33,759 nucleotides of DNA, taken from contig JBDRML010000041.1 in the NCBI GenBank assembly GCA_043812195.1, positions 1-33,759 on the forward strand, written 5' to 3'. The notes below the pieces were generated by a model that searched no databases, was not told the DNA's origin, and saw only the letters and a program-made list of their open reading frames with translations. Position numbers and translations under genes: made by a program. The first letter of the stretch is position 1. Every line of letters starts with the position of its first letter. This DNA comes from Candidatus Woesearchaeota archaeon (GTDB lineage: Archaea > Nanobdellota > Nanobdellia > SCGC-AAA011-G17 > PNOQ01). Below, in pieces: positions 9,745 to 29,708 of the stretch.

Positions 9745-9804
9745 CGAAATCTTTATAAGTTTCTAAAGCCCAACCTTTCAAGAATACAAAAGGGGAGACA
9801 ATTA

Positions 9805-10425: not shown

Positions 10426-10426
10426 A

Positions 10427-10807
10427 ATGATTTCATTCCAATATATCCCTTATAGAGAACATTCAAGATTGGATACTGAAAAAAAATTAAGCAAAATTTT
10501 AAAAATAGTAAGAAAAGATAAGATAGTTCTAATGCAGGGCAGATTAAAATCTTCAGAAGAAGCACAATTAATAGAAAGAACCATGGGACAAATCACAAAA
10601 GATTTCCCAGGAATTTCATTCTGCACCATATACCCAGAAAATAACAATACTAAAAAACCCAACCAGATTCAAACAAAATTAAAAAACTTAATTTATAATT
10701 TAATATTAGGTAACAGAGATTGCTTAACTATTGTTGGTCCTGCATCGATCGTGACCGAAATTAGAAAAAATCCAAATAAGATAGATTTATTAACAAAATC
10801 TATCTAA
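10427..10807 (+). CDS. oapB: DUF2073 family protein OapB/ArvB
   Basis: KIVLMQGRLKSSEEAQLIERTM...FPGI...LTIVGPA pattern; synteny. Confidence 0.8.
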   Translation: MISFQYIPYREHSRLDTEKKLSKILKIVRKDKIVLMQGRLKSSEEAQLIERTMGQITKDFPGISFCTIYPENNNTKKPNQIQTKLKNLIYNLILGNRDCLTIVGPASIVTEIRKNPNKIDLLTKSI

Positions 10808-10817
10808 CCCCAAACAT

Positions 10818-11207
10818 ATGCCTCACCAATGTGTCAGATGTGGAAAATTATATGAAGATGGAACTCCCCATTTATTAAAGGGGTGTACAGATTGTGATGG
10901 CAAGTTTTTCTTCTTTATTAAAAAGTCTTCAGTTGAAAAAGCTCAGAAAATTTCAGAATCTCTAACACCTGATGATAGAAAACATGTAGAGCAAGAAGTC
11001 CAAAAAATTTTAGAACAATCAGATGAGGATACAGATTCACCAGTATTTTTAGATATAGAAAATATTAGAGTTCCACAAGTAGGAAAATATGAAATAGACA
11101 TAGTAGACATGTTCAAAGGTAAACCAATAGTAGCCAAATTAGGAGAAGGCAAATATATAATAGATATTATTTCTGCATTTAAAGAGTCTATTGGAAAGAA
11201 AAAGTAA
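10818..11207 (+). CDS. oapC: Zn-ribbon protein OapC/ArvC (DUF2072)
   Basis: MPHQCVRCGKLY...LKGCTDCDGKFFFF and GKYEID...GKYIIDI. Confidence 0.85.
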   Translation: MPHQCVRCGKLYEDGTPHLLKGCTDCDGKFFFFIKKSSVEKAQKISESLTPDDRKHVEQEVQKILEQSDEDTDSPVFLDIENIRVPQVGKYEIDIVDMFKGKPIVAKLGEGKYIIDIISAFKESIGKKK

Positions 11208-11738
11208 TTAATTTATCTTTATTTGTATAGGAACCTCAACACCTCCCCAATATAATAAATTTAATTCACCCATAATTCGATATCTGCCAGATTTTACTAG
11301 AAAATCATCATTTTCTGCAGGAGTTCCATTATCATTTTTCATATTCCAATAGGTCTGAAATTTCTTAGTTTCATAAGCATCTAAACTAAAATCTATTATT
11401 GTATCACAAGAAGACATAATCCGAATATTCTTCCAAACCTCATCGCTATCTTGTTCAACACAAAATTTATACATTAACGTATTTTCACAGGCCATAATCG
11501 GCCCCAAACTTAATCTTCTCTCTGTTAAATTAGATACACTATAAGTAAGATCAACAATTTCATTGAGACTGTAAATATATTTATCTGCTTCCATACGATA
11601 AAGAACATCATGATATGTAATTGAATTGACATTAGTAAGGGAGACCGGTATTTCTGGTCTTGTAACACCACTTCCACACCCGTTTAGTATAGGTAATCCT
11701 AAAAGAATTGTTGCAAGAGCTTTTCCAATTTTTCTCAT
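11208..11738 (-). CDS. Lipoprotein with BsuPI-like Ig-fold (proteinase inhibitor-like) domain
   Basis: Probable start MRKIGK, lipobox LNG-C; DKYIYSLNE...SVSNLT...ETKKFQTYWNMKNDNG...SGRY pattern; paralog of 14506-15039. Confidence 0.6.
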   Translation of the reverse strand: MRKIGKALATILLGLPILNGCGSGVTRPEIPVSLTNVNSITYHDVLYRMEADKYIYSLNEIVDLTYSVSNLTERRLSLGPIMACENTLMYKFCVEQDSDEVWKNIRIMSSCDTIIDFSLDAYETKKFQTYWNMKNDNGTPAENDDFLVKSGRYRIMGELNLLYWGGVEVPIQIKIN

Positions 11739-11819
11739 GTTTATTCCCAATTTTCTAAATTTTAAAGTTATATTTAAATCTTTCTATTTTTTACCATGGG
11801 CATGTAGTAAAAATAGAGA

Positions 11820-14426
11820 TTAATAAAGTTTAGATGTAAATATTCTTTTTATTATATTTAATATTTTATCAATTGTATTTTGTTTATTTGAATAAAGTGG
11901 GCCACCTTCTGAAATCATTGCTTGTTCATATGGCAAACTTTTTCCACCAGGACAATAACCACACTCTAAGCATGCATCTGAACAACAATCTCCATATTCA
12001 ACGCATAAAGAATCACACCAGCAACCCCCGGGAGCAAGTTCATCACACTCAGTAGCCTGACAACCACAGTCTATAGGACAATTGATGTCTGTTTCTCCTT
12101 CTTGACATTCTCCATTTCCACAGCTAGGACAAGCACCGCAATCTTCAGGACAAGTTGAACAAATTTCATTGTCATTACACTCTCCATCACCACATTCCAG
12201 CCCCACATAACAAAAATCATAATTAATATCAGAACAATTAAAAACTTCACCAAATTTATTGCCATATCCCCAAAAATTGTTAATACTATTACCTGAGCAA
12301 TATAAATCATAATAACTATTATTACAAGCCACATTATAATCTATAACATTATAAATGTCATAAAAATTAGATTCGCATACGATACCATAATCACTACCCG
12401 ACACTATGTTACCATGAATATAATTGTAGTTCACGTAATCATATAAATGTATTCCAACAAATGTATTATTAATATTATTATTATAAATATCAGAGTCTTC
12501 ACTATAAGTTATCCAAATTCCGCGTCGAAAATTCTCAATTAAACAATTTTCCACTTTAGCCCCATATCGCCCTTCGACTGATACCCCATTACTATTACCA
12601 ACACCAGTAAGCTTATGTCCATTACAATCTAAAGTTACGTCATTTCTAACTATCTCCAAACCATTTTCCACACAATTAATAATATCATTTTGAAGTATAG
12701 TGTCTCTAAATATCTTGTTTCCACATTCACAATTACCATCACAAGAACAAGAATAATAATCAATATTATCACAACCAGATCCAACTAAAAAATTATTATC
12801 ATAACCAGTATTGTCTGTAGGTATATTTACACAAACCAAATCTCTATCATTATCACAACCAAAATTATATGAGATATGATTATTGTGAACATCGTTACCA
12901 CCTAAATAAATACCATCACCATTATTTGATAGTGTGTTTGAATTAATTTCATTATTAGATGAACTATAAACTAAACTTATTCCTCTTGCATTATTGATAA
13001 GTCTATTTTCATACAAATAAGCATCTGAACTATCTAACAATGAAATACCCACATTAAAATTAGATATTTCACAATTTCTAATATTTACATTATTCTTATT
13101 ATTAATATTAATCCCGAGTCCCTCCCCAATACCATTAATCCTATGTCCATCACAATCTATAGTGATATCATCAGCACCAATTATAACACCATCAGCACTA
13201 CAATCAATCAAATCATAGTTCAACACAACATTAGTTCTAATTTCATCCCCACAGCCATACGTCCTTTTTATTGGATAAGGAGTCACAAGCTTAAGATAAT
13301 TATCTCCGTCTATTTTAACACATTCAGCACAGGGAGAATAATCATTTAGAGAGCTATAAAAAGATGATCCAGCTGTCCAACCAATATCCATAAGTTGAAA
13401 CATTCTATTTTGCCACATAACAGCATAATCCCAACAAATATCACATTGGTCTTCATGCATTTTACAATATCCAACCGTTACACTTCCAATATCTCGGCCC
13501 TTCCTGAAAGCATAAGAAAAACTTCCAGGTCCAGTGTAACACATTCCATCACAACTACCTATAAAAGTAAAAGGCATAGCTGGATAATCCTCAATCCATT
13601 CCCCAACTTCATATGCACTAGTATATTCATAATGTTCTCCATTTATACAACCACTATTAAAACTCAAGCTATCACCATGTGCTGTCTCATAAAATACAGC
13701 AGTATCATACGATTCTATATGGCTCCTTACTTTACTTTCAGTAGGCCACACTTCATAATTCGTAGAATATCCCATAGCATCAAACCAATACCTAGCATTT
13801 TCTGCCTGCCCGCTCCATAAACCACTACAGGGTTGTTCATGTTGTGGTCCAGTTAATGAAAATCCTGTATATGGTGGTGGAATTCCATAACCTAAAAATT
13901 CTCCAGTTATGGCATCAATAACTGAAATAATCAATTCATAATCATAGATGCTTCTTACTACCCAAGATGGATCTTTAGGGGTTGGCTCAATTAGATAAAC
14001 ATCAGATTCTGGTGATATAATATAAAGACTACTTCTTAGAGGAATCCCTTTCACTTTAGATTCGGCTTCATCCTTAGAAACTTTAATTTTAGGCAACTTA
14101 TTAGGGATATCATCTCTCCAATGTCTATTAATTTCAACAAATTTATCTAAATCTTGATCCCAGTTATATATTAATAGATCTTTCTCAACAATAGCATCTC
14201 CTAGTTTTCTTTGATAATAATATACATCAATATCATTGATTACTGTTCTTTCAAAGGGTATTCCTTCTGGAAGAGATGTGAGATACTCTAATTCAGGCAA
14301 ATCTTTTATTGCAGAATCTTGTATCGGAGAAAGGAACTTTTTACCAAAATCAGTTTCACAGCCAGATATAAATACTAACACAACAATAAATATAATAAGT
14401 TCAATTGATATTTTTTTAATTATCAT
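11820..14426 (-). CDS. Large secreted lipoprotein: putative clan CD (gingipain/caspase-like) domain, two NosD/parallel beta-helix blocks and a Cys-rich tail
   Basis: Lipobox ISG-C; YETAHG and FIGSC dyad-like motifs; two DC[DN]GH-initiated beta-helix blocks; CGDGEC/CGNGEC repeats; somatomedin-B-like CWCDSLCVEYGDCCSD. Confidence 0.7.
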   Translation of the reverse strand: MIIKKISIELIIFIVVLVFISGCETDFGKKFLSPIQDSAIKDLPELEYLTSLPEGIPFERTVINDIDVYYYQRKLGDAIVEKDLLIYNWDQDLDKFVEINRHWRDDIPNKLPKIKVSKDEAESKVKGIPLRSSLYIISPESDVYLIEPTPKDPSWVVRSIYDYELIISVIDAITGEFLGYGIPPPYTGFSLTGPQHEQPCSGLWSGQAENARYWFDAMGYSTNYEVWPTESKVRSHIESYDTAVFYETAHGDSLSFNSGCINGEHYEYTSAYEVGEWIEDYPAMPFTFIGSCDGMCYTGPGSFSYAFRKGRDIGSVTVGYCKMHEDQCDICWDYAVMWQNRMFQLMDIGWTAGSSFYSSLNDYSPCAECVKIDGDNYLKLVTPYPIKRTYGCGDEIRTNVVLNYDLIDCSADGVIIGADDITIDCDGHRINGIGEGLGININNKNNVNIRNCEISNFNVGISLLDSSDAYLYENRLINNARGISLVYSSSNNEINSNTLSNNGDGIYLGGNDVHNNHISYNFGCDNDRDLVCVNIPTDNTGYDNNFLVGSGCDNIDYYSCSCDGNCECGNKIFRDTILQNDIINCVENGLEIVRNDVTLDCNGHKLTGVGNSNGVSVEGRYGAKVENCLIENFRRGIWITYSEDSDIYNNNINNTFVGIHLYDYVNYNYIHGNIVSGSDYGIVCESNFYDIYNVIDYNVACNNSYYDLYCSGNSINNFWGYGNKFGEVFNCSDINYDFCYVGLECGDGECNDNEICSTCPEDCGACPSCGNGECQEGETDINCPIDCGCQATECDELAPGGCWCDSLCVEYGDCCSDACLECGYCPGGKSLPYEQAMISEGGPLYSNKQNTIDKILNIIKRIFTSKLY

Positions 14427-15039: not shown

Positions 15040-15185
15040 TTTTTATAAAATAATTTAATTATTTATAAACCTTTCCATTTTGTTATCACTAATTAGAAAT
15101 TATATTTGCTTTAAATCAAAGTTGTTTCATAGAGAAGATATGATTTTTTACCACTACTATTCTTTCACTATTTAAATAGTCTTAT

Positions 15186-15317
15186 CCAAAAACAGGCAAA
15201 TACGAAATAGACATAATTGATATGTTCAAAGGAAAGCCAATTGTCTGCAAAGTAGGCGAAGGCAAATACGTAATAGATATTATTTCTGCATTCAAAGAAA
15301 CTGAAAAGAAAAAGTAA
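15186..15317 (+). repeat. Diverged direct-repeat copy of the oapC 3' end (partner 11073-11207)
   Basis: PKTGKYEIDIIDMFKGKPIVCKVGEGKYVIDIISAFKETEKKK* versus PQVGKYEIDIVDMFKGKPIVAKLGEGKYIIDIISAFKESIGKKK*; about 35/43 aa identical by hand count; no 5' part. Confidence 0.92.
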
Positions 15318-15381
15318 CCACCTTTAAGAAGTAAAAAATAGAAAGATTTAAAAAGGTAACAAATATAAAAATATTATAAAA

Positions 15382-15960
15382 ATGCTAAAAAAAATTAATA
15401 CCATTAACACTAACAGCTCTAATAGGATTAGCACCATTAGCAAATGCTAAAAGAGATTTTAGTGCATATTTTACTACAGAAACAAGTTCTCCAGAAACCT
15501 CGAAATAGGTGTATTTTATACTCCAGTTACATCAGAATATTTTAGATTAGGAATACATGGATCAATTAGAAGAGAGAAAAGTCTTCCATATCTATCAGGA
15601 GGAACAGTTGGAGTTAGGTTGGGAACAGAAATAAACCCAATTAACCTAATTGTTGATGAAAGAAACCCAATTTATCTAACTGTTGGTACAAAAGGGCAAT
15701 TTTATTTCACTCTTCCAGGAGAAGTAGATAAAGATAATGATGGGACAATTGATGGACCAGCAGAGATCGGCACAATAGGACTTTTTCAAGTGTATTGTGC
15801 AAAAAAATTATACAAAGGAATAGAATTAATAGGAGCTTACTCATTTAAACATATAAATTTTAAAAGTGATATCAAAAACTTAAAAACTAAATTTCCCATC
15901 AATGAAAATAAACTAGAAGTAGGTCTAAGAATTTCAACAAATCTTAAAATTAAAAAATAG
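15382..15960 (+). pseudogene. Doubly frameshifted secreted beta-strand-rich protein
   Basis: ATG 15382, shift in an A8 run gives signal peptide KLIPLTLTALIGLAPLANA; second shift near 15500 joins the frame of track ORF 15619-15960. Confidence 0.65.
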
Positions 15961-16094
15961 ATAAATCTATCTAATCATTATATCTGCACCAATCTCGTGA
16001 GGAAGGTATTCGTTATAATATATATTATTAGTAAATTCCCCCCCCAGGAACAAAATCATCCATGCTGAAGGTGCCTCCTATTTGTTTAGAATAA

Positions 16095-16304
16095 TGCATA
16101 AAAGTTGTTGCAAAATTTGTTGAAGTACTTTGTTATAATACTCCTTTACCAAGACAATCTGGACACGGAACTGTGTGGTGTGATAATATTAAAATAAAAG
16201 AAAGATTATCAGGGGGAAAACCAACACTTCCATATGATACTCCATCTAATGAAAATTCTCAATTAGGCGTTAATATACCTATAAAAATTAAGTATTCCAG
16301 ATAA
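16095..16304 (+). pseudogene. Orphan 3' fragment of a probable secreted protein
   Basis: Frame without an upstream start, ...GHGTVWCDNIKIKERLSGGKPTLPYDTPSNENSQLGVNIPIKIKYSR*; CBM-like last strand plus GGK-LPY motif. Confidence 0.5.
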
Positions 16305-16470
16305 AAAATTTCTGTTAAATAATAACAAAAGGTCATGGCCATAAACAAAAGTAATCTGGTGCATTAATTGGGCTTTAGCAACAGTTAAAATCAAAGTTTT
16401 GAAGATATGTTATTACTCTAAGATAGAAAATAAAAAAGTTTATAAGGGGGGTTTTATTTTCAAATTTAAT

Positions 16471-17607
16471 ATGTTAGGTCCATACACTACAAACAAAGAT
16501 GGAACAATTTCCTACAAGGGAAATAAAGTGTTTAAACCTATAAAAAATATCAATTCTATAGATGTTCCTATTGAGGAATTTGAAAAAAGAGTAGAACAGT
16601 TTAATACAGATAAAATGTGGGGGCATATAGCGAAGATCAACCATCAAATAAATATGTCAGCAAATTTATACTTCGAAGAATTAGGTTCAACATTTACAGC
16701 ATTGCCTTCAACAACTAGGATGATTTCATCACCAGGAGCAGTGTATAGCAAAGAAGCTGTTAATTATACAACAGATACGTGCCCTATAACTATTAAATGG
16801 TTTGAGTTGCCAAATGAGGCATTTCTTTCAGAATCTTCACAAATCTATTTAGAATTAGCTTTAATGCAAAAAGGAATAGATAGTGTTTATTCAATTTATA
16901 ATTCTTTCAGAAAAGAAAAAGCAGATGCAACACATCTGTCTGAATTTCACCACATTGAATATGAAGGAAAAGTAGACCAAATAAAGAACGAAACAATTGC
17001 TTTGGGTTTAATAAAAAGAATAATTTTAGACCTTTTAAAAAATAATAAGGAAGATTTAGAATATTTTTTATCTAATGAAAGACTAAAAGAACTTGAAGAA
17101 TTTGCAGAGAAAATAATGGATATTCCAAAAATTACATTTAAAGAAGCACTTAACTTACTTTTTAAAGAGACAGGCAATAAAAAATATAAGGAGTTTAGTC
17201 TTAAACATTTTAAATCCTGGGAAGAGGTCAAAATAACAGAAATATTAGGCAATATGATTTTAATTAGAGAATTTCCTCTATTAGAAGTGCCTTTTTATCA
17301 TGCAGTTGTTGATGGAAGAGAACCAAAAGTGGCTAATAATGCTGATATAATCTGGTCAGGGTATAGAGAAATAATTGGAAGCGGTCATAGAGTAAGATCA
17401 GAAAAAGAACTTGAAGAAAAATCAGAAATATTTAATCTTCCTAAAGAAGATTATGAACCTTATCTTCAGACAAGAAAATCAAAAAATTATAAAGCAACAT
17501 CTGGTTTTGGGCTTGGTTGGGAAAGATTATTACAAGGGCTTTTAGAAATGCCTTTCATATGGAGTGCTAACCAATTTCCAAGAGTTGATGGGACTTTGAA
17601 ACCTTAA
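16471..17607 (+). CDS. Class IIb aaRS catalytic-domain paralog (AsnRS/AspRS-like, no anticodon-binding domain; asparagine synthetase-like)
   Basis: LSESSQIYLE, motif 2 SFRKEKADATHLSEFHHIEYE, EIIGSGHR, motif 3 GFGLGWERLL; no OB fold; ATG 16471 after TATA-like aagtttataa preferred over TTG 16399. Confidence 0.85.
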   Translation: MLGPYTTNKDGTISYKGNKVFKPIKNINSIDVPIEEFEKRVEQFNTDKMWGHIAKINHQINMSANLYFEELGSTFTALPSTTRMISSPGAVYSKEAVNYTTDTCPITIKWFELPNEAFLSESSQIYLELALMQKGIDSVYSIYNSFRKEKADATHLSEFHHIEYEGKVDQIKNETIALGLIKRIILDLLKNNKEDLEYFLSNERLKELEEFAEKIMDIPKITFKEALNLLFKETGNKKYKEFSLKHFKSWEEVKITEILGNMILIREFPLLEVPFYHAVVDGREPKVANNADIIWSGYREIIGSGHRVRSEKELEEKSEIFNLPKEDYEPYLQTRKSKNYKATSGFGLGWERLLQGLLEMPFIWSANQFPRVDGTLKP

Positions 17608-17608
17608 A

Positions 17609-18445
17609 ATGGAAATAGAAAAATTAACTGCTAAAGATATAGAAGGGATGGATTATAACCAATTAATAGGTTTAACCAAGGAAACAAATAGGATTCCAGG
17701 TGGAAGAAAAACTGTATTTGAAATTGCCAATAGGATTTGTTTGGATAGAAAAAGCAAGGTATTAGAAATTGGAACTAGCACCGGGTTTACTGCAATTGAA
17801 CTGAGCAAATTAGTAAGATGTAAGATAACTTCAATTGATATTAATGAAATGAGTTTAAAAGAAGCTGAAAAGAGAGCAATTTCAGAAGGCTTTGATGATA
17901 TAAAATTCTTAAAGGCAGATATTAATGAACTCCCCTTTGAGAATGAAAGATTTGATTTAGTAATTATTGGAAATGTACTTTCATTAATGTCAAATAAAGA
18001 AAAATCTTTCAATGAATGTAGGAGAGTATGTAAAAAAAGCGGATTTATTGTTTCTGTTCCAATGTTCTATGTTGAGACTCCTTCAGAAAAAATTATTAGG
18101 TCTATTTCTAGGGCAATTCAAGTAAATATTAGCCCTTTATATAAGAAAGATTGGGATGTTTTCTTTAATATTCCTGAATTAGAAGTGTACTTCAGTGAAG
18201 ACTATAAATTTGATTATATAGGGGATGATGCAATTGAAAAATTTGTTGAAGAGATATTAAAAAGAGAGCACCTTAAAAAATTAGATAAAGAAGCATTAGA
18301 AGTTTTAAATAAGAAATATAAGGATTATATGTTCTTATTTAGGGATAATCTCTCGAAAATGGGTTTTAGTATTGTTATTTTATCCAACAAGAGGCTTTGG
18401 GAAGATCCAGAATTATATACCTCTAAAAAGATTGTAAAAATATAA
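17609..18445 (+). CDS. Class I SAM-dependent methyltransferase
   Basis: Motif I VLEIGTSTG, ITSIDIN, ADINELPFENERFDLV, RRVCKKSG. Confidence 0.9.
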   Translation: MEIEKLTAKDIEGMDYNQLIGLTKETNRIPGGRKTVFEIANRICLDRKSKVLEIGTSTGFTAIELSKLVRCKITSIDINEMSLKEAEKRAISEGFDDIKFLKADINELPFENERFDLVIIGNVLSLMSNKEKSFNECRRVCKKSGFIVSVPMFYVETPSEKIIRSISRAIQVNISPLYKKDWDVFFNIPELEVYFSEDYKFDYIGDDAIEKFVEEILKREHLKKLDKEALEVLNKKYKDYMFLFRDNLSKMGFSIVILSNKRLWEDPELYTSKKIVKI

Positions 18446-18448
18446 AAA

Positions 18449-19765
18449 ATGGCAAGAGTAAAATCTAACCAAATTCAAGAACTTCCTTTAGAGACCAGAG
18501 TAAGTTTAAAGGGGAGGATTATCTTAAAAAGGGATTTTGGAAAGAGAGTTTTTTACACATTAAAGGATGATGAGGGATTAGTTCAAGTTTCTTTAGAAAG
18601 AGGCTCTTTCGAAAAAGAAGAGAATTATAAAGAATTAAAAAAAGGATTGAGTATTGGGGACATTGTAAGTCTTGATGGAATAACGAGTCTTTCAAATACT
18701 GGAACACCAACATTAGCAATAGCAGAGGTGGATATTTTGACAAAATGTAGAAAGCTTTTACCAGATAAGGATAAGGGTTTAAATAATTATAATCAGTATA
18801 CTAATAGAGGTTTACATTTATTGACGGACAAGAATGCTTTAAGTAAATTTAGGAGACTTAATTTTCTCAGAAGATCGGTTCGAGATTATTTACACCAACA
18901 AGGATATGAAGAAGTAGACACAGGCATACTTAAATCAGTTTCTGATACTTCAATGTCTGCGGAATTTGTAACCACTGGAAATTGGACATCCTCTCCACTA
19001 TATTTAAGAAAATCTACTGAAATGAGGTTAAAACAATTAATGGTTGGAGGATTAGAAAAGATATTTGAATTAGGAAAAGAATTTAGAAACGAAGGAGTTT
19101 CATCACAATTTTTACCTGAATTCACTGCATTAGAATTGTATGGGGCATATTTAGATTATAAAGATATATTAAATTTAACTGTTGGGATGATGGATAGGAT
19201 TAATGAAGAAGTTGGAGAACCAGAATCAAAACCTACCCATTTTTGGGAAGTGTTCTTATATGGTTTTATTCAGGAAGAAACAAAGACTGATATGAGGGAT
19301 GCTTCTTTAGAACAAATTAAGGAATTAATACATCCAGAGATCTTTAAAGAATATTCAAATCATCCAGCAATGAGAGCCTTTTATATTTATGACACTTTTA
19401 GGAGCCTTCTAAAAAAATATCCTGAACAAAATATTGTACTTCATGGAGTTCCTTTAGAAGTTTCTCCATTAGCAAAAACATTTGACAATGAACCAACACT
19501 AGTGGAAGAGTTTAGATACTTTGTTAAAGGTACTTCTTTTTGTGGTGGGATGACGGAGTTAACAGATCCACAAGAGCAATGTAGAAGGATAACTAATCAA
19601 GCAGAATATCTTGGAAAATCATTAGATGATATTGATAACCAATTTACTGAATTATTAGAATATGGATTACCCCCTTGTGGTGGATTAGGGCTAAGTCTAG
19701 AAAGGCTTATGATGATTTATGCAGAAACAAAAAATATAAAAGAGGTTGTATATTTTCCCTTATAA
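18449..19765 (+). CDS. Class II lysyl-tRNA synthetase-like protein, divergent paralog
   Basis: N-terminal OB fold (GRIILKRDFGK...IGDIV), LKQLMVGGLEKIFELGKEFRNEG, motif 3 YGLPPCGGLGLSLERL...VVYFP. Confidence 0.85.
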   Translation: MARVKSNQIQELPLETRVSLKGRIILKRDFGKRVFYTLKDDEGLVQVSLERGSFEKEENYKELKKGLSIGDIVSLDGITSLSNTGTPTLAIAEVDILTKCRKLLPDKDKGLNNYNQYTNRGLHLLTDKNALSKFRRLNFLRRSVRDYLHQQGYEEVDTGILKSVSDTSMSAEFVTTGNWTSSPLYLRKSTEMRLKQLMVGGLEKIFELGKEFRNEGVSSQFLPEFTALELYGAYLDYKDILNLTVGMMDRINEEVGEPESKPTHFWEVFLYGFIQEETKTDMRDASLEQIKELIHPEIFKEYSNHPAMRAFYIYDTFRSLLKKYPEQNIVLHGVPLEVSPLAKTFDNEPTLVEEFRYFVKGTSFCGGMTELTDPQEQCRRITNQAEYLGKSLDDIDNQFTELLEYGLPPCGGLGLSLERLMMIYAETKNIKEVVYFPL

Positions 19766-19774
19766 AGATAAAAA

Positions 19775-20806
19775 ATGAAACTTAAACCAAACAAGCTGAA
19801 AAAAGGCGATACAATAGCATTTATAGCCCCTGCTTCAGGATTTGCAGCACTTGTACCACATAGGCTTGAAAAAGCCAAACAATTCTTTGAAGAAAAAGGG
19901 TATAAAGTAAAGATATTTCCAACTGCTACTAAAAATATAGGCTTAAGTTCAGACACTCCTGAAAATCGTGCAAAGGACTTTAATGATGCTTTCCGGGATT
20001 CAAAAATAAAAGCAATAATCTGCACAATAGGGGGAAATTCCTCACATCAAATATTAGAGTATTTAGATGCTGATTTAATAAAAAAGAATCCAAAAATATT
20101 TTGCGGATATTCAGATATAACTTCCTTGCATTTCTTTCTTAATAAAATATGTAATTTAGTTACTTTTTACGGTCCGACAGTAATACCTGAATTTGGAGAA
20201 ACATTAAACTTGGAAAAATATACTGTAGAATATTTCTTTAAAGCAGTTGCTAATTCTGAACCTATCGGTGAAGTTAAGCCCTCAAAGAAGTGGACTGATT
20301 TTAAAGAGTTGAATTGGCTTGAAAAAGAAGACCTAAAAATCGAAAGGAAATATAAACTAAATAAAGGTTACGAATGGCTAAAGAAAGGGAAATCAGAAGG
20401 AGAAATTATGGGGGGATGTATCACTTCTATGATGCATACAAGAGGAACCAAATATTGGCCAGATTTTGAAGGGAATATCTTGTTATTAGAAACTCCTGAA
20501 GGAGAAAGTTTTGATAAGGGAGAATCAATTGCAAACATAGATGCATTTTTAACAGATTTAAGAATTTCCAACGTTTTTGAAAAGATTAAAGGAATTGTAT
20601 TCGGGCGAGGATTTGGTTACAATGAAGATGATTTAAAAAAGTTAAAAGGTTCAATGTTAGAAAATAGCAGAGGGAATAATTTTCCAATTTTGTTCAATGT
20701 TGATATTGGCCATTCTGATCCTAAGATAACAATTCCTTTAGGGGTTAAAGTAAGTTTAGATTCAGAAAAAAATTGTTTTACAATACTAGAATCAGGTGTA
20801 AAATAA
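19775..20806 (+). CDS. S66 family peptidase (MccF / LD-carboxypeptidase)
   Basis: LKKGDTIAFIAPAS, GYSDIT (Ser), ILLLE (Glu region), DIGHSDP (His), TIPLG. Confidence 0.92.
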   Translation: MKLKPNKLKKGDTIAFIAPASGFAALVPHRLEKAKQFFEEKGYKVKIFPTATKNIGLSSDTPENRAKDFNDAFRDSKIKAIICTIGGNSSHQILEYLDADLIKKNPKIFCGYSDITSLHFFLNKICNLVTFYGPTVIPEFGETLNLEKYTVEYFFKAVANSEPIGEVKPSKKWTDFKELNWLEKEDLKIERKYKLNKGYEWLKKGKSEGEIMGGCITSMMHTRGTKYWPDFEGNILLLETPEGESFDKGESIANIDAFLTDLRISNVFEKIKGIVFGRGFGYNEDDLKKLKGSMLENSRGNNFPILFNVDIGHSDPKITIPLGVKVSLDSEKNCFTILESGVK

Positions 20807-20897
20807 AATAGCAATTAATAAGAGATTTTCTTTTAAAATAAAAGAAGCAAAGCTTGATAATAGATTAAATCTTGCTTGATATTTCTATTAATTCTCT

Positions 20898-21782
20898 TCA
20901 CTTATTTGCTGTCTTAAACTTCAAAGAAGGTATAGCAACCTCTGAAGGAGTTTTGTAATTTAATGCTTCGTGCTTTTTTATAAAATTGTAATATATCTCA
21001 ATTCCTTTCATTAATGAATAAGCAGAGTGAATTGAGCCGTGCAATCCTCTAAATGCTCTTGTTCTTTGTCTTATTGAATTATGAACTCTCTCAACCCAAA
21101 TATTAAATCCTTCTCCTTTTGAAGCATTTACAACTTTATGAGTTATCTTGTGCTTTCCTATGTTGTTATCATAACCCCAAGTTTTCTTAACTAAATTAGT
21201 GTAAGTTGTTAATCCATCTGTTGTAACAATTTTAACTCTCTCTTGTGTTTTATCTTTGACTTTGTTTAGAACAGATTTTAATTCCTTCTTGTTTCTGTTC
21301 TTTGCATAAGTAGAGTTAATTAAAAATCTTGTCTTAACATCAATAGCATTTATACTCCAATTTTTATCTATTCCTCTACTGCCTTTTTTGTGGCTTAATC
21401 TTCTATGGTATTCCATCTCATCAACTTCTATGTAAGAGCCAGAATTAATTTGAAGTTTATCAGTATATTCTAAAATTTGAACAGAGTATTTTCTAATCCA
21501 TCTCAATATTGTGCTGTGGTCTGAATTGTGTGGAAAGAATGCTTTGAAGTGTTCCTGCACTCCACGAATAGATAATCCTCTGAAAAACAAATCTAGAGCA
21601 CAGGTTATTTTTTGAGAGTTGTTTCTCATTCTATAAAAACCACTTCTCTCTATGAATTTTTTATTACAAGATTTACAGAAATATCTTTGTTGCTTTCCGT
21701 GTGCTTTTGTTTTGAAAGAGCCCCGCTTAACTACATCTTCTTTTCTTTTACAATACGGACATTTAATCTCTTTAATTCTCAT
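20898..21782 (-). mobile_element. IS1/IS6-like DDE transposase with N-terminal zinc finger; probable premature stop near the C-terminus
   Basis: ATG 21782 MRIKEIKCPYC...CKSC, HTH, EVDE / TTDG / VER, YYNFIKKHEALNYKTPSE; frame continues after TGA as RELIEISSKI*; termini not identified. Confidence 0.85.
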
Positions 21783-21784
21783 AG

Positions 21785-21832
21785 AATTATTAGGCACCCG
21801 AACTATATAAACCTTTCGGTGCCCGAATAATT
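21785..21832. promoter_or_regulatory. Transposase promoter bracketed by an imperfect inverted repeat (operator candidate)
   Basis: aattattaggcacccgaa ... ttcggtgcccgaataatt flanks the minus-strand BRE/TATA gaaaggtttatata; a third similar box lies at 22031-22053. Confidence 0.65.
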
Positions 21833-21874
21833 ATGGAAGAGGAAAATTAATTAAAATAAAATTGAAAAGCAGAA

Positions 21875-22033
21875 TTAGTCTTCTTCTATAATTATTTTCT
21901 TTTTTTCGAGTCTTACTTTAACTTCCTTATTTTTTAATCCACTATCTTCAACAATTTTTTTAGGAAGATTAATTCTATATTTAATATAAGTTGTATCTCC
22001 AATTTTTTTATCAAAAACTTTCATAATTTTCAT
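21875..22033 (-). CDS. 52-aa AbrB/MazE-like DNA-binding protein (not in ORF track)
   Basis: MKIMKVFDKKIGDTTYIKYRINLPKKIVEDSGLKNKEVKVRLEKKKIIIEED*; xxLPKxIV...G...V.V....KIII swapped-hairpin pattern. Confidence 0.7.
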   Translation of the reverse strand: MKIMKVFDKKIGDTTYIKYRINLPKKIVEDSGLKNKEVKVRLEKKKIIIEED

Positions 22034-22150
22034 AGAATTATTAGGTGCCCGAAGTTTTTAAGTCTTTCTAAATAAGCATATTTAAGACCAATTAACGCAC
22101 CAGTGAAAGACAAAAGAAAATTTTATAAACCTAAAAACCACTCCCAAAGA

Positions 22151-23101
22151 ATGAAATTTATGAGAAAAGCAATAAAGTTTATAGCAATTCCAATATTAAC
22201 TTCATCAATATTTTTAACTGATTGCAATACCAATAAAATACCTTCTAAGCCACAATCAGAAATAGGAAATATAATATATACAAGAGGAGAAGATGGAGTT
22301 ATAGGAAAATTATACACCAGCGATATTTACGGTGAAAATGAAAGATTGGTTTTAGACTGTGATTCTTGTATGCAGCCAACCTTCAGCCCAGATGGTGCCA
22401 AGATAGCTTATATTAAGCAAATTGGAGAAGATATCAGCGAAATATTCTTAATAGATTCAGATAGAGAAGAAACTAGATTAACTACCTTAGAAACCATTAC
22501 TAAAGATCCAACGTGGAGCCCAGATGGTTCCAAATTAGCATTTAGTTCAACTGGCTTAAAAGGAAATAAGAACAAGGAAAATTTAGATATATATATTATA
22601 AACTTAAATGGAGAAGAATTAAGAAGATTAACACAAAATAATTGGGTTGATGAGCAGCCATCATGGGCAAATAATGGTCAATGGATATTTTTCGTATCAA
22701 ACAAAACAGGGGCAAGCAACCTATATACTATGAGAAGTGATGGCAGCAATAAAATAGCCATAACTAACAATTCAGATTATAACGCCTATTGGCCATTGTT
22801 AAGTAACGATGGTTTAAAACTTTTATACACAATAGAAGAAATAACCAATGAAGGAAATTCAAAAATTATAGTTAGAGATTTTTTAAGCGGAGAAGAGTTA
22901 GGATTAACAAATTCTACATATGTTAGCGGAAGATTCAACAGAGCAATATGGGATAAAGCTGGAAAAAAAGCATTATTAGTTTCTAGTAATAAAGAAAGTG
23001 AAAATATGGAAATATCTTTGTTTGATACCAAAGATTATAAAATTACAAAAATAACAAATAACAATCACAATGAATATTTTCCACATTGGAGAAATAATTA
23101 A
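22151..23101 (+). CDS. TolB-like PD40 beta-propeller protein, secreted
   Basis: Repeats PTFSPDGAKIAY, PTWSPDGSKLAF, PSWANNGQWIFF, EYFPHW; N-terminal signal/lipobox-like LTD-C; start ATG 22151 or 22160. Confidence 0.85.
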   Translation: MKFMRKAIKFIAIPILTSSIFLTDCNTNKIPSKPQSEIGNIIYTRGEDGVIGKLYTSDIYGENERLVLDCDSCMQPTFSPDGAKIAYIKQIGEDISEIFLIDSDREETRLTTLETITKDPTWSPDGSKLAFSSTGLKGNKNKENLDIYIINLNGEELRRLTQNNWVDEQPSWANNGQWIFFVSNKTGASNLYTMRSDGSNKIAITNNSDYNAYWPLLSNDGLKLLYTIEEITNEGNSKIIVRDFLSGEELGLTNSTYVSGRFNRAIWDKAGKKALLVSSNKESENMEISLFDTKDYKITKITNNNHNEYFPHWRNN

Positions 23102-23402
23102 GATTTTTCTCTTCCCATTTCTTAACAACAGAAAAACTCTTATCTAAAAACTTTTCAAAATCCTTATTCTTTCTCCAGATTTTAACTAATTTTTCTCTTA
23201 ATTCTTTATGCATAGGATATCCTTTATCTTTAATTTTCAATAAGTCACGAAATTCTTCATTTAAAATAAAAGTTGTAGCTTCCTTAAGGTGTCCAATTAA
23301 TTCTTTACCAATTTTTTCTTCACAATAACTCCAATAATGCCAATGAAACATAAAATGCATCATTTCATGCATCATTGTTTTGATTTGCGCATCTGGGAAT
23401 GG
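23100..23402 (-). pseudogene. 3'-half fragment of an HEXXH protein, paralog of 26623-27327
   Basis: PFPDAQIKTMMHEMMHFMFHWHYW...GHLKEA...DKGYPMH matches 27019-27300; upstream sequence shows no similarity. Confidence 0.85.
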
Positions 23403-23544
23403 GAAAATATGGTAGAAAAAGAGTAAAAGATAAATTTTATAATAAGAAAAATAAAAATTTGTTACGGTTTTTAAAAGCAAGCTGTGAAAGAAAACTTTTC
23501 CTGCTTTGACCTTAGGGCAGTTCACAAAATATGAATACAAATTT

Positions 23545-24081
23545 TTATTCTAAATAAACATTTTCAGAATCCTTTATATTCTCTTCAAAATCACCCTTCA
23601 AATTAATTCCTTTAATAAACAATCCATCTTTATTCTTTTCAATAATTGAAACAGAGCAGTTGTCTAAGACAAGGTTTTTCCATAGATTTTTTTTGCTTTT
23701 AATAATTTTGTTTAGAAAATATCTTATAAAATTCCCGTGGCAGAAAATAGCAAAGTTACCTTCGTTTTCAATAATTTCATCAAGAAAATCGTCTGCTCTT
23801 TTTTTATCCTCCAATTCTCTGTTTGGAGAAGCCCCTTCTTTTTTAGGACCTCCGACCAAAACTCTATAAACTTCTCTTAATCTTTTGTCTTCAACAAAAT
23901 TTTCAGAGTATTCTTTAGCAGTTTCTTTTGCTCTCTCTAAATCACTTGTGTAAACTTTATCAATTTTTAATTTTTTTAATTTTTTAGCTAATTCCTTAGA
24001 TTGCAAAACTCCCTTTTCGCTAAGTTTTGCTTCTCCTTCCTGGATTTCTGTATGTCCATGTCTTATTAAAAAAAGCCTCAT
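23545..24081 (-). CDS. Histidine phosphatase (phosphoglycerate mutase family)
   Basis: LIRHG, YTSDLERAKETA, LREV, FCHGN. Confidence 0.92.
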   Translation of the reverse strand: MRLFLIRHGHTEIQEGEAKLSEKGVLQSKELAKKLKKLKIDKVYTSDLERAKETAKEYSENFVEDKRLREVYRVLVGGPKKEGASPNRELEDKKRADDFLDEIIENEGNFAIFCHGNFIRYFLNKIIKSKKNLWKNLVLDNCSVSIIEKNKDGLFIKGINLKGDFEENIKDSENVYLE

Positions 24082-24474: not shown

Positions 24475-25413
24475 TTAGAATTTTCCTTGTTCAAATTCCT
24501 TAAGAATTTGCCTATGTTCATCTAAAATCCAACCAAGTCTTTTTTGCTTGAACCAAATTGTTCTGGAAACAGCCAACAAATGTAAAAGAAAATATCCTTT
24601 TATTAGCTTCAATTCCTTTTTTGTGAAATGTTTTTTATATCCTCTTAAAAAATGTTTAAAATTTTTGCTATCATCAACTTTAAATCTTATCCAATATGCA
24701 GTTTGTCCAATATCTGCTAAGCTATGGCCTTTCATAGCATTATCAAAATCGAATATTCCAGTGGTATCTCCTTTAGAATTTACATTTAGATTTGATAAAT
24801 GATAATCCCAGTGAAGAGGAACAAAGTCTATTTTCTCATTCTTCAAGATTTCCCAAAATTCGCTTAATTCTTTTTCTAAAAAATCAAAATAATTATTAAA
24901 TTTTCTACTAAAAAATTTAAGATATTTTTTAACTCTTAGCAGTGTCCATTTTTTCCATTCTTGCTGATTTTTTATCTCATGATGCTGATGAATCCAAAAA
25001 GATGGAATTTTCAATTGATGAATTTTTCTTAAATTTTCTCCGGCATTAAATAGAATGTTTTTCTGTAAATTTTGATTTCTATTCTTATATACATTACTAG
25101 CAACGTCACCTAAGCAATATTCCATAATTGAAATGAATTTCTTATCAATAACACCATCAAAAAATACTTTGGGCGCAGGAATTTTATATTCATTTAAATA
25201 ATTGAGAATTTTGTTATTTTGGTGAATTTTATTTTTATTCTTTAACTTACTTAATTTTGCAACAACTATTTTAGGATGGTTGCTGATTCTAACCTTGAAA
25301 GTTGAACTAACTAAACCTGTGGAAAATTCTTCATAAGATTTAATATTTGCTTTTGGGAACGATTTTTGAATAATTCTTTCTATTTTCTTTTTGTTGAATT
25401 TTAATTTGCTCAT
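24475..25413 (-). CDS. Aminoglycoside phosphotransferase/choline kinase family protein
   Basis: IPAPKV, IMEY, LHWDYHLSN (HxDxxxxN), GIFDFD. Confidence 0.88.
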   Translation of the reverse strand: MSKLKFNKKKIERIIQKSFPKANIKSYEEFSTGLVSSTFKVRISNHPKIVVAKLSKLKNKNKIHQNNKILNYLNEYKIPAPKVFFDGVIDKKFISIMEYCLGDVASNVYKNRNQNLQKNILFNAGENLRKIHQLKIPSFWIHQHHEIKNQQEWKKWTLLRVKKYLKFFSRKFNNYFDFLEKELSEFWEILKNEKIDFVPLHWDYHLSNLNVNSKGDTTGIFDFDNAMKGHSLADIGQTAYWIRFKVDDSKNFKHFLRGYKKHFTKKELKLIKGYFLLHLLAVSRTIWFKQKRLGWILDEHRQILKEFEQGKF

Positions 25414-25703: not shown

Positions 25704-26549
25704 TTATTTTGTTAATACAGTAATTTTCTCTTTTTTAATGTCTAAAAACCCCAATTTATTTTGGGGAATAAATTTTTCATCATGAAAATCGCTTCCTCCA
25801 GAAAGTTTGAGATTATATTTTTTAGCCATGTGTTCTCCGAATTTTATTTCCTCTTTATTTGTATTAGGAACATAGATTTCTAGCCCATCTAATCCATATC
25901 TTATGAGCTCCTTGATTAGGGTTTCTTGCTCTTTAAAAGTTTTAAATTTATCTTCATATTTATACATGGATAAATGCGCTAAAACGGCGATTCCCCCTGC
26001 TTCATGAATTATTTTAATCGCTTCATCTGCATAAATTTCATCATATAGCTGTTTAAGATAACATGGACCTCCCTTGATTAATGCTTTTATGCCTTCTTTA
26101 ATGCTTTTAACTAGTTTTTTGTCTAAAAGAACCATGGCAATGTGTGGAACACTTGGGAATCCTTTTGTCTTGGCTTTAATTTCATTAAAAGTTATGTTTG
26201 TTTTGAAATAGTTATTGACTAATCTTAAAATTTTCCTTATTTTTATTTTTCTTAGTTTAATTTTTCTGTTTGATAGTTCTTTTATTTTTTTATGTTTGTG
26301 GTTAAAATATAATCCAACCATGTGAATTTTTTCTTTAGAACATCTTACTTTGGAACTAATTTCTATTCCTGTTATGATTTCTATATCCTTCCCTTCAGAA
26401 TATTTTAATGCACTTGATAAGGCAGAAACAACATCATGGTCAGTAATTGATAATATTTTTACTTTTCTCTTTATAGCTAAATCTATAATTTCCTTTGGGC
26501 TTAATGAGCCATCTGAGTATATCGTGTGGGTGTGTAAATCAATTTTCAT
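25704..26549 (-). CDS. PHP domain phosphoesterase (TrpH/YciV-like)
   Basis: IDLHTHTIYSDG, ITDHD, GIEIS, VLAH, GLDGLE, GGSDFH. Confidence 0.92.
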   Translation of the reverse strand: MKIDLHTHTIYSDGSLSPKEIIDLAIKRKVKILSITDHDVVSALSSALKYSEGKDIEIITGIEISSKVRCSKEKIHMVGLYFNHKHKKIKELSNRKIKLRKIKIRKILRLVNNYFKTNITFNEIKAKTKGFPSVPHIAMVLLDKKLVKSIKEGIKALIKGGPCYLKQLYDEIYADEAIKIIHEAGGIAVLAHLSMYKYEDKFKTFKEQETLIKELIRYGLDGLEIYVPNTNKEEIKFGEHMAKKYNLKLSGGSDFHDEKFIPQNKLGFLDIKKEKITVLTK

Positions 26550-26622
26550 AAATTATCTGAATTTGTGGCGTTTATATTAATTATGGAGATACTTTTTTAA
26601 ACTAAATTAACTATGTTATTTG

Positions 26623-27327
26623 ATGGTGCCTAAACTTGTTTTTAAGAAAAACAAAAAATTAGATATTATTAATTGTTATAATGCTATAAATGGTAAAAGT
26701 TTTGGCACTTATTTTAAGTCATTTACTGAAGATTTCATTAAAAAAATAAAAGATAAACCTTTTGAAGAAGTGAAAGAAATAATTAAGGAGAAAATAGATT
26801 TTGCTTATGAAAGAGATAAAGAGAGAATTGAATTTGTACTGAAAGAATCTGAAAAGGGATGGATGAGAATAAATGATGAATTCTTTAATAGATTAGAGAA
26901 AATAATGAAAAAAAAGTTTTTACCTAAAAAAATTACAGTTTATGCTACTGTTTTGGGAAGATGTGACTATAATTATAGTTTAGATGATCCATTTTTTAAG
27001 ATTTCTATAAGATCTTCACCAATTCCTGATACACAAATTAAAACTATGATGCATGAAATGATGCATTTTATGTTTCATTGGCACTATTGGGATTATTGCG
27101 AGAAAAAAATCGGCAAAGAACTAACAGGCCATCTTAAAGAAGCTCTAACATTTATTTTAAATGAAGAATTTAATGATATAGGGGGATATGAAGATAAAGG
27201 ATATCCTATGCATAGAGAATTAAGGAAAAAACTAACCAAAATTTGGAGAAAAGACAAAGACTTTGAAACATTTTTGGATAAAAGCATTAATGTTATGAAA
27301 AGATTTAAACACAAAAAAAGAATTTGA
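26623..27327 (+). CDS. HEXXH zinc metallopeptidase-like protein
   Basis: MHEMMH with a downstream LKEAL glutamate (gluzincin-like arrangement). Confidence 0.65.
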   Translation: MVPKLVFKKNKKLDIINCYNAINGKSFGTYFKSFTEDFIKKIKDKPFEEVKEIIKEKIDFAYERDKERIEFVLKESEKGWMRINDEFFNRLEKIMKKKFLPKKITVYATVLGRCDYNYSLDDPFFKISIRSSPIPDTQIKTMMHEMMHFMFHWHYWDYCEKKIGKELTGHLKEALTFILNEEFNDIGGYEDKGYPMHRELRKKLTKIWRKDKDFETFLDKSINVMKRFKHKKRI

Positions 27328-27830: not shown

Positions 27831-27850
27831 TCGCGATTTCTTTTTTCTTT
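27809..27850 (+). terminator. Hairpin plus T-run at the 3' end of the precursor gene
   Basis: agaaatcgcg (27809-27818) pairs with cgcgatttct (27832-27841), followed by tttttcttt. Confidence 0.65.
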
Positions 27851-27858
27851 CTAAAAAA

Positions 27859-29705: not shown

Positions 29706-29708
29706 AAA

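Follow-up and report, generated by a model that had tools for sequence, protein, structure and literature searches.

The window analysed here, a stretch of 33,759 nt, is the whole of contig JBDRML010000041.1 (C41) of a Candidatus Woesearchaeota archaeon, whose genome comprises 938 kb in 45 contigs at about 29% G+C. We investigated an operon of four forward-strand genes in this window, separated by gaps of only 1, 3 and 9 nt. The first gene (16471–17607; 378 aa from an ATG) encodes AsnL, an AgnA-type class IIb synthetase core that resembles asparaginyl-tRNA synthetase (AsnRS) and has no anticodon-binding domain; the second (17609–18445; 278 aa), an AgnB1/MccD-type class I transferase dependent on S-adenosylmethionine (SAM), here termed MT; the third (18449–19765; 438 aa), LysL, a divergent class II LysRS-like protein with an OB domain and a catalytic core; and the fourth (19775–20806; 343 aa), an MccF/AgnC5-type S66 serine peptidase. 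A preceding sequence-only reading of this DNA had assigned such identities to four tightly spaced genes, and the positions of the open reading frames (ORFs) together with their Pfam domains confirm that the arrangement is real. The longest AsnL ORF begins upstream, at a TTG at 16399; the 378-aa ATG start is backed by more than 100 homologues of equal length. None of the four proteins reaches the curated NCBIfam cut-off of its nearest family.

AsnL and LysL are extra copies beside housekeeping synthetases. The genome's own AsnRS (477 bits, cut-off 414) and AspRS (685 bits, cut-off 443) are both encoded on contig C15, and its own LysRS, an archaeal class I enzyme (464 bits, cut-off 148), on contig C16, which rules out that the LysRS-like gene of the operon is the only housekeeping copy. 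The same holds in five other genomes with LysL beside AsnL, all of which have another LysRS above the cut-off (one of class I, four of class II).

Relatives of the four proteins in agrocin 84 and microcin C clusters

Both agrocin 84 and microcin C act as Trojan-horse inhibitors of aminoacyl-tRNA synthetases, and each has at its centre a nucleotide in the form of an N-acyl phosphoramidate. The likeness to the agrocin 84 locus that had been proposed from the sequence is borne out, as the window proteins are homologous to AgnA, AgnB1 and AgnC5. Searching plasmids by tblastn with AsnL retrieved agnA of pAgK84 (Rhizobium rhizogenes K84), whose record gives the order agnA, a SAM-dependent methyltransferase gene (AgnB1), agnB2 (agrocin-resistant LeuRS), agnC1–C4 and agnC5 (MccF-like), within an agn cluster of 17 genes. 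The succession of AsnRS-like protein, SAM enzyme, extra synthetase and MccF-like protein is thus the same in both, although the extra synthetase, a second copy in either case, is a LeuRS in the plasmid and LysRS-like in the window, and the hosts are a rhizobium and a DPANN archaeon. The sections of PMC8323819 that deal with agrocin describe its pathway as unknown, with AgnA, which belongs to the cluster required for agrocin production, only proposed to attach the pentanamide to AMP via a phosphoramide bond; they present AgnB1 as a SAM-dependent enzyme and AgnB2 as an immunity LeuRS about 1000-fold less sensitive, report an extra MetRS in actinobacterial agn-like clusters, and, from BLASTP searches of bacterial RefSeq, confine agn-like clusters to Rhizobiales and Actinobacteria.

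The only domain that Pfam finds in AsnL is the D/K/N core of class II synthetases (PF00152, 103.5 bits, residues 54–372); the OB anticodon domain PF01336 was not found. It scores 135.3 bits against the AsnRS model NF003037 (cut-off 414) and aligns with AgnA at 27.5% identity (BLASTP, E 2e-25). The class IIb core fold and motifs 2 and 3 are common to AsnL, AsnRS and the archaeal asparagine synthetase A (AS-AR). AsnRS, however, has the OB anticodon domain that AsnL lacks, so AsnL is not an AsnRS, and neither AsnRS nor AsnA has the insert and the pocket changes that AsnL shares only with AgnA-like proteins. These comprise the insert itself (TT...SSP...D-x-x-P), an acidic residue where the 'QSxQ' motif of AsnRS has its first Gln, and 'GxG(H/E)R' where AsnRS has 'GGSQR'. 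A quick maximum-likelihood tree of 84 rows separates AsnRS from a single clade of 68 AsnL proteins and 6 AgnA-like ones from plasmids, which has a support of 100 in the Shimodaira–Hasegawa-like approximate likelihood ratio test (SH-aLRT). By this tree, AsnL is a distinct and much more conserved sister family of AgnA.

A first structure model of AsnL, built from 22 close sequences, had a predicted local distance difference test score (pLDDT) of 49.9 and was replaced by a model from a 91-row alignment, with a mean pLDDT of 94.1. The best fold match of this model is Pyrococcus horikoshii AsnRS with bound Asn-AMP (1x54; TMq 0.79, 27% identity). Motifs 2 and 3 retain their arginines across 91 sequences, and the Arg that reads the Asn or Asp side chain in AsnRS and AspRS is conserved as well. 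Given that these arginines are kept, AsnL most likely binds ATP and an Asn/Asp-like substrate.

The same data bear on the idea that AsnL is an archaeal-type asparagine synthetase (Asp + NH3 + ATP) surrounded by unrelated housekeeping genes. Partial matches to asparagine synthetase A models are in its favour, as is the automatic annotation of plasmid relatives as 'asparagine synthetase A'. However, even the best of these matches (NF005055, 109.4 bits) falls far below its cut-off of 389, which places AsnL outside the asparagine synthetase A families and, by the same scores, argues against the ordinary Asp + NH3 ligase that had been considered before; with the AsnL family profile, the solved archaeal enzyme 3p8t reaches no more than 36.6 bits, compared with 92 for AsnRS; AsnL is absent from 39 of the 41 related genomes searched; and its linkage to MT, S66 and synthetase paralogues, described below, is conserved across two domains of life. 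We therefore regard a role in ordinary metabolism as very improbable.

In a word-indexed search, AsnL matched 602 proteins at E ≤ 1e-10 (7998 scored candidates), and 45 representatives in a 50%-identity library at E ≤ 1e-30. The best 120 homologues are 64–100% identical to it and nearly all 378 aa long, and the nearest come from records titled Woesearchaeota, Pacearchaeota and Nanoarchaeota; on this basis and that of its class I LysRS, we take the host to be a DPANN archaeon. Among the 41 genomes related to that of the window, its own included, a close AsnL occurs in two (the window's genome, G000, and G033); the other matches are AsnRS-sized ORFs with 31–36% identity. Such sporadic presence indicates that AsnL is an accessory gene, probably spread by horizontal transfer.

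The MT gene begins 1 nt past AsnL, just as an AgnB1-type gene directly follows the gene for AgnA. Its product contains a class I SAM methyltransferase domain (PF13847, 75.8 bits) and aligns with AgnB1 over 270 of 273 aa at 39.6% identity (BLASTP, E 3e-69). The suggestion in the sequence-only reading that AgnB1 is a methyltransferase agrees with both the pAgK84 annotation and the agrocin sections of PMC8323819, which call it SAM-dependent. MT is also 43–44% identical to the methyltransferases of the Streptomyces and Xenorhabdus clusters described below. In the PDB, its best match is MccD (5fcd; 70.5 bits, E 1.7e-18), and direct comparison with E. coli MccD yielded 28% identity over 187 aa (E 4e-23), close to the value for AgnB1 itself (27% over 259 aa, E 9e-28). 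In microcin C biosynthesis, as outlined in the relevant sections of PMC8323819, MccD has a class I methyltransferase fold and transfers 3-carboxy-3-aminopropyl from SAM onto the peptidyl-nucleotide, which MccE1 then decarboxylates.

The S66 peptidase contains both the N and the C domain of Peptidase_S66 (128.7 and 93.4 bits). It scores only 88 bits against the LdcA model NF008424 (cut-off 378), and among PDB entries it reaches 163–210 bits with MccF-type proteins and 65 with LdcA. Its identity is 31.8% to E. coli MccF (E 5e-53) and 31.6% to AgnC5 (BLASTP, E 2e-55). By these comparisons, the window S66 protein belongs to the MccF clade, apart from LdcA. Alignment of 57 S66 proteins shows Ser118 and His311 in every one and Trp186 in 54, the window protein included, and position 243 is Glu in 48 and Asp in 9, the window protein having the Glu243 equivalent; positions 243 and 311 complete the catalytic triad of MccF. 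According to the microcin C sections of PMC8323819, immunity is provided by MccE2 (GNAT), by MccF (S66), with Ser118 and with Trp186 stacking on adenine, both of which the window protein thus shares, and by the HIT protein MccH; PMC7157772 likewise describes HIT hydrolases as a known immunity against peptide-nucleotides. Separately, two related genomes carry S66 genes 64–67% identical to that of the window (G007, contig C10, L113; G019, contig C46, L112) with no AsnL, MT or LysL nearby. These may represent orphan immunity against a neighbour's product.

LysL is the second-copy synthetase-like gene in the position of AgnB2. The protein has an OB domain (PF01336, 42.1 bits) and a class II core (PF00152, 168.2 bits), and aligns over its full length, OB included, with solved LysRS (233 bits to 9jkl), but it lacks the N-terminal helix of class II LysRS and scores only 307.6 bits against the LysRS model TIGR00499 (cut-off 427.6). 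From EpmA (145 bits on its model) it differs in keeping an anticodon-binding domain, which EpmA does not have. Where E. coli LysU has the Glu of 'DRFE' and the Glu of 'GRE', LysL has Arg and Ser, respectively; motif 2 reads 'QFL' where LysU has 'RHN', and the 'GGA.ARPF' loop is replaced, all of which recurs in 6 of 6 subfamily members; the motif 2 and 3 arginines and the 'E-x-Y' motif are retained. In LysU, the two replaced glutamates are Mg ligands, and HisRS has an Arg in place of one Mg. From these residues, LysL may still be able to adenylate, though not as a standard LysRS, and its changes would fit a drug-insensitive immunity enzyme or a re-tooled biosynthetic ligase.

Neighbours and partners of AsnL across genomes

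A scan of one genome per species returned 97 confirmed AsnL relatives, of which 80 loci were retained. We called and clustered 1215 ORFs in the window and these 80 loci, and dropped two loci with no intact AsnL ORF under table 11 (L090 and L093), leaving 79 loci including the window. Neighbours were counted within 6 kb of AsnL, separately for the 49 loci in which AsnL has 4 kb or more of sequence to either side, and the sole background comparison for these counts is the presence of S66 in 5 of the 41 related genomes. The hosts are DPANN archaea, haloarchaea (Natrinema, Haloarcula) and many bacteria of the candidate phyla radiation (CPR/Patescibacteria), together with metagenome-assembled genomes (MAGs) labelled Bdellovibrionales, Gammaproteobacteria and others.

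The same partners stand beside AsnL in most loci. An AgnB1-type methyltransferase was found in 46 of the 79 and a second class I methyltransferase type in 17; either type was present in 63 (41 of the 49), S66 in 53 (40 of the 49), methyltransferase and S66 together in 47 (36 of the 49), and an extra synthetase-like gene in 58 (38 of the 49). A HIT protein occurred in 13 of the 79 loci, S66 or HIT in 43 of the 49, and none of the 49 was without all of these partners. The neighbourhood survey that had been proposed for the operon thus finds its co-occurrence elsewhere, and the recurrence of the same partners in most of the 79 loci indicates that the arrangement is not due to chance. The invariant core of the family, as we read it, consists of an AgnA-type adenylating enzyme, an AgnB1/MccD-type SAM transferase and an MccF-type S66 peptidase.

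The MccD, MccE, MccF and HIT parts of microcin C all appear around AsnL in this set. Among the 81 sequences (the window and the 80 loci), 47 contain a homologue of E. coli MccD and 56 of MccF; the GNAT part of E. coli MccE matches 2 loci and its decarboxylase part 3, and genes of the pyridoxal phosphate (PLP) decarboxylase family and of ABC-2 exporters adjoin AsnL in some loci. The HIT (MccH), GNAT (MccE2) and PLP decarboxylase (MccE1) functions of microcin C thus have counterparts in loci related to the window. In contrast, E. coli MccB, a ThiF-like protein, has no match in the window, a sole match in the genome on contig C23, and a match in only one of the 80 loci, L059, about 6.6 kb from AsnL: where MccB would act in microcin C, an AsnRS-like enzyme is found here. 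Inspection by eye of the 95 nt upstream of AsnL revealed no MccA-like short ORF ending in Asn.

The extra synthetase varies. The partner is a ProRS-like protein without the editing insert in 26 loci, at times as two genes in tandem, LysRS-like in 14 including the window, a weak HisRS-like protein under the Pfam cut-off in 8, a full-length AsnRS in 7, MetRS in 5 and LeuRS-like without the CP1 domain in 4. All five of the checked genomes with a ProRS-like partner have a housekeeping ProRS above the cut-off elsewhere; the MetRS partner is a second copy in two of five genomes and the only detectable MetRS in the other three, which are MAGs whose completeness is not known. Seven loci, the window not among them, contain an RlmN/Cfr-like radical SAM gene, and LysL is present in every one of them. 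Comparison of the ProRS-like family with AgnC1 showed no link (no BLAST match; hhalign probability 4.7%).

In several proteins, the partners are joined in one polypeptide. P0124 (667 aa) combines AsnL with a methyltransferase of the second type, which over 279 aa is 49% identical to its stand-alone counterpart; in P0238, a methyltransferase is joined to an AgnA-like core; P0163 and a Pantoea plasmid protein combine a GNAT (Acetyltransf_3) with such a core; and P0206, P0208 and P0210 (1300–1570 aa) consist of carnitine acyltransferase, Asparaginase_2, HIT and the AgnA-like core. These fusions tie the ligase to the SAM enzyme and to the kinds of enzyme that disarm aminoacyl-nucleotides. In the Pantoea agglomerans gene (L101, 8824–11335), the GNAT part is a C-terminal piece of Acetyltransf_3. 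An MFS transporter gene comes next, and among the matches listed the fused gene was seen on six P. agglomerans plasmids (H1–H5 and H21). In Natrinema gari and N. altunense, cultured and tractable haloarchaea (L067 and L068, about 9150–12033), AsnL is followed by a DrrA-like ATP-binding cassette (ABC) ATPase, an ABC-2 permease and S66, with an AgnB1-type methyltransferase about 3 kb upstream.

The same trio occurs on plasmids of cultured bacteria. A Peribacillus plasmid carries a methyltransferase, an AgnA-like protein and S66 beside AlaRS, an AlaRS-related protein, an MFS pump and an ATP-grasp enzyme; in Xenorhabdus bovienii, an AgnA-like protein, methyltransferase, S66 and a PNP_UDP_1 nucleosidase-family gene are followed by LeuRS; and a Bradyrhizobium plasmid has S66, AgnA-like, HAD and methyltransferase genes. 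On a plasmid of Streptomyces sp. NBC_01707 (L107, 6947–14972), AgnA-like and AgnB1-like methyltransferase genes, subunits of a FAD/molybdopterin dehydrogenase, a ProRS-like gene and S66 occur in a row, which is preceded by condensation-domain, AsnB-like and MFS genes, and the ProRS-like protein is 28% identical to the DPANN ProRS-like family (E 9e-47). More speculatively, the Streptomyces cluster could be one for a prolyl/8-oxoadenosine-type phosphoramidate nucleotide such as phosmidosine, in which the prolyl phosphoramidate of 8-oxoadenosine also bears a methyl ester on its phosphate. Phosmidosines are phosphoramidate nucleotide antibiotics of Streptomyces (PMC6429109).

A candidate cassette for aminoacyl-nucleotide inhibitors

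The sequence-only reading had offered three functions for the operon: a biosynthesis-plus-immunity cassette, a resistance cassette, and a system for aminoacylating and methylating protein or tRNA. While its agrocin and MccF analogy stands, the nearby tailoring genes and the RimL-like remnant that it had added do not, as detailed below. Among the three functions we infer the first, since the core is common to agrocin 84 and partly to microcin C, and we put the probability that the operon is a biosynthesis-plus-immunity cassette for an aminoacyl-nucleotide synthetase inhibitor at roughly 60%. The homology, gene order, catalytic residues, extra copies, co-occurrence, fusions and island borders are directly supported, and from them we infer each chemical step, the product and the target. 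AsnL would use ATP and an Asn/Asp-like acyl substrate to form an N-acyl phosphoramidate of adenosine, which mimics an acyl-adenylate but cannot be hydrolysed; this step has been proposed for AgnA and is performed by MccB in microcin C. The SAM enzyme would decorate this nucleotide with a methyl or a 3-amino-3-carboxypropyl group, as MccD does on its phosphoramidate, and the S66 peptidase would cut the acyl–N bond and so shield the producer, as MccF does. LysL would either keep tRNA-Lys charged while the housekeeping enzyme is inhibited, the role of AgnB2, or supply or specify a lysyl part of the product. The AgnB2 precedent and the second-copy status of LysL point to immunity, whereas a constant AsnL, freely swapped partners, loci with several partners and the remodelled LysL point to a synthetase paralogue that supplies the amino-acid part; we consider the two roles about equally probable.

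Several observations weigh against the proposed cassette. AsnL is highly conserved (64–95% identity among close relatives), with AsnRS-like pocket residues. The type of partner synthetase changes at least 23 times on the AsnL tree, and several loci contain two or more different synthetase paralogues, superfluous for a single target. Such a combination of constant AsnL and shifting partner fits poorly with a simple scheme in which the side chain is determined by AsnL and immunity comes from a matching synthetase next to it. LysL, with both Mg-binding glutamate positions replaced, may not be a working LysRS. The role of AgnA itself is a proposal in the agrocin sections of PMC8323819; MT matches MccD only moderately, at 70.5 bits where the next methyltransferase reaches 50.3; and the clade uniting AsnL and AgnA joins long branches, as a warning of the tree tool indicates. 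Queries with the pentanamide-tailoring AgnC1 and AgnC4 gave no match at E 1e-3, and no window protein was matched by AgnC2, AgnC3 or the ABC ATPase. No exporter was found, the scanned window ORFs containing no transporter domain and the later agn genes, AgnG included, not having been used as queries. Finally, the surveyed loci are interrelated and were chosen through AsnL, so that the counts given above are descriptive and overstate independence.

The partner changes can also be taken as a clue to a different division of labour. The window AsnL is 82% identical to an AsnL paired with a LeuRS-like gene and 79% identical to ones with ProRS-like partners, and for the distinction between Lys and any other partner we counted 13 changes for 14 Lys rows on an AsnL tree that is poorly resolved. 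An AsnL sequence independent of the partner synthetase implies that AsnL performs a common step, with the synthetase as a swappable module. AsnL might be a ribosome-independent stand-in for MccA and MccB, which would take free Asn or an aminoacyl-Asn with ATP through the same adenylate–succinimide route as theirs to an isoasparaginyl (aspartamide) adenylate, while the swappable paralogues (Lys, Pro, Leu, Met and His-like, up to two or three per locus) would build the Trojan-horse part instead of conferring immunity. We advance this proposal tentatively and think it rather unlikely; if true, it would represent a new route to peptidyl-nucleotides through tRNA-synthetase paralogues, used by ultra-small DPANN and CPR symbionts against hosts or competitors and spread on small transposons.

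Another possibility is that AsnL aminoacylates a protein or a tRNA base, MT methylates the adduct and S66 removes it. Anticodon-less synthetase paralogues are often so employed: EpmA is a LysRS paralogue that lysylates elongation factor P (EF-P), and GluQRS is likewise a modification precedent. The score of LysL on the EpmA model and the radical SAM gene that accompanies LysL in 7 loci would suit such a system. Its sporadic distribution among relatives (2 of 41) and its mobile location would not, and neither would the homology and synteny with an antibiotic cluster, the linked HIT, GNAT, decarboxylase and ABC-2 exporter genes, which are typical of peptide-nucleotide antibiotics, or the retention in S66 of the adenine-stacking Trp of MccF. 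Macromolecule modification by the operon is, in our judgement, decidedly improbable.

The mobile island and its place in DPANN and CPR biology

The four genes share their immediate surroundings with a transposase. The left border is marked by a 7-nt direct repeat, ACAAAAG (16345–16351), which sequence reading identifies as a possible target-site duplication, followed by a 20-nt terminal inverted repeat (16356–16375) that is complementary at 18 of 20 positions (90%) to the right terminal inverted repeat found by repeat search (22084–22103); the direct repeat ACAAAAG recurs beyond the latter (22110–22116). Between these borders and downstream of the operon, the reverse strand encodes a 299-aa DDE transposase with an N-terminal zinc ribbon (20898–21797; DDE_Tnp_IS240, 35.2 bits), which in NCBIfam falls below the cut-offs of both IS6 (73.4 bits, cut-off 125) and IS1 (52.4 bits, cut-off 100). 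Repeat search also identified the remnant of a second insertion sequence (IS) end (22024–22068), an 82% copy of 45 nt over the 5' end of the transposase gene (21773–21817). The inverted repeat is present in the genome at these two sites only (≤3 mismatches) and was not found in the other fetched AsnL loci (≤4 mismatches). Together, the four genes and the transposase constitute a mobile island bounded by repeats.

Near-identical DNA is present in two groundwater metagenome runs from two studies, with shares of 0.92 and 0.73; the better-matching run may be the source from which the window was assembled. Contigs of the two runs cover 30 of 30 bins of the region 15500–22300. A 289-nt contig from one of them (X1) joins position 16344 to 22110, with 7 letters fitting both sides and 23 letters on the short side, and hints, weakly, at an empty site. 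No RNA run is listed as containing the stretch; in two metatranscriptome runs, only three short contig pieces were found, outside the four genes, with no bearing on their expression. A sigma-70 promoter and terminator scan, a model ill-suited to an archaeon, returned no more sites than shuffled sequence (31 versus 29.5 and 2 versus 2.4).

Mobility of this kind is shared with many resistance cassettes, and the island could be one in which nothing is synthesised, composed of a hydrolase, a drug-insensitive LysRS and two drug-modifying enzymes that together protect the cell from aminoacyl-nucleotide antibiotics of its neighbours. The absence of an exporter from the window would be consistent with this, as would the S66 genes without AsnL nearby in the two related genomes and the observation, in the microcin C sections of PMC8323819, that MccF homologues often stand alone as resistance genes. 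Against it, AsnL retains the full adenylation machinery, with the motif 2 and 3 arginines kept in 91 sequences, and groups with AgnA, a member of the cluster required for agrocin production, and the natural fusion of AsnL with a SAM enzyme suggests a two-step synthesis as opposed to two detoxifiers. We know of no resistance mechanism that employs an AsnRS-like ligase, although no search aimed at one was made. A resistance-only island is accordingly improbable in our estimation, and we continue to favour a cassette for both biosynthesis and immunity.

Outside the island borders, the ORFs of a His phosphatase (23545–24081), an APH kinase (24475–25413) and a PHP protein (25704–26549) exist as described earlier, but their suggested role as related tailoring or detoxifying genes does not hold, as they lie beyond the island and are not conserved with the cassette: near AsnL in other genomes, nothing corresponds to the window APH, PHP and 165-aa ORFs, and the His phosphatase has weak counterparts in 3 loci only. 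The RimL-like remnant was detected neither by Pfam in ORFs of at least 100 aa nor by tblastn with E. coli MccE, and in 15040–16470 no RimL/GNAT remnant was found in 7 of the 14 stop-to-stop frames of at least 40 aa at E values up to 1.

Further features of the window and the genome stand apart from the operon. Two ORFs that are 76% identical over 99 aa (23043–23540, reverse; 26620–27327, forward) bracket the His phosphatase, APH and PHP genes, and this opposed pair may bound another repeat-bounded insertion. In the region of 27820–30960 and 31760–33415, a YcaO cyclodehydratase (28428–29705, 168 bits) lies beside a nitroreductase-family protein (29709–30446), and the pair is flanked by unannotated small ORFs and then an S8 subtilase; this looks like a cluster for an azoline (thiazole/oxazole, TOMM-type) peptide, a possible second natural-product locus. 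At the other end of the window, 178–8135 encodes a DUF7289 protein, a 1485-aa ORF and a pair of membrane proteins of the T2SSF family; this is probably an archaeal locus for a type IV pilus or for adhesion, and homologues of the two T2SSF genes occur near AsnL in L036 and L056. On contig C15 of the same genome (L001, 140–2775), the AspRS is of bacterial type (NF001750, 685 bits) despite the archaeal host; only 451 aa long, it matches the 590-position model in two stretches and seems to be without the bacterial insertion domain, and its gene overlaps that of AsnRS by 4 nt.

A literature search of main texts, without supplements and figures, found no publication joining MccF, agrocin or AgnA with DPANN, Patescibacteria/CPR or Woesearchaeota.

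These findings present the AgnA/AgnB1/MccF core as a minimal unit of two to four genes in hundreds of genomes, in which the key phosphoramidate chemistry could be tested in vitro, and they link agrocin 84 to microcin C by way of the MccD- and MccF-type parts that both systems contain. They also suggest a large unexplored family of synthetase-directed nucleotides, with swappable paralogues that would set the target or the carrier. DPANN archaea and CPR bacteria have genomes of less than 1 Mb and live on other cells. The cassette would be among the first antibiotic-type clusters assigned to these groups, and as such it is relevant to the ways in which these organisms may compete with their hosts or control them.

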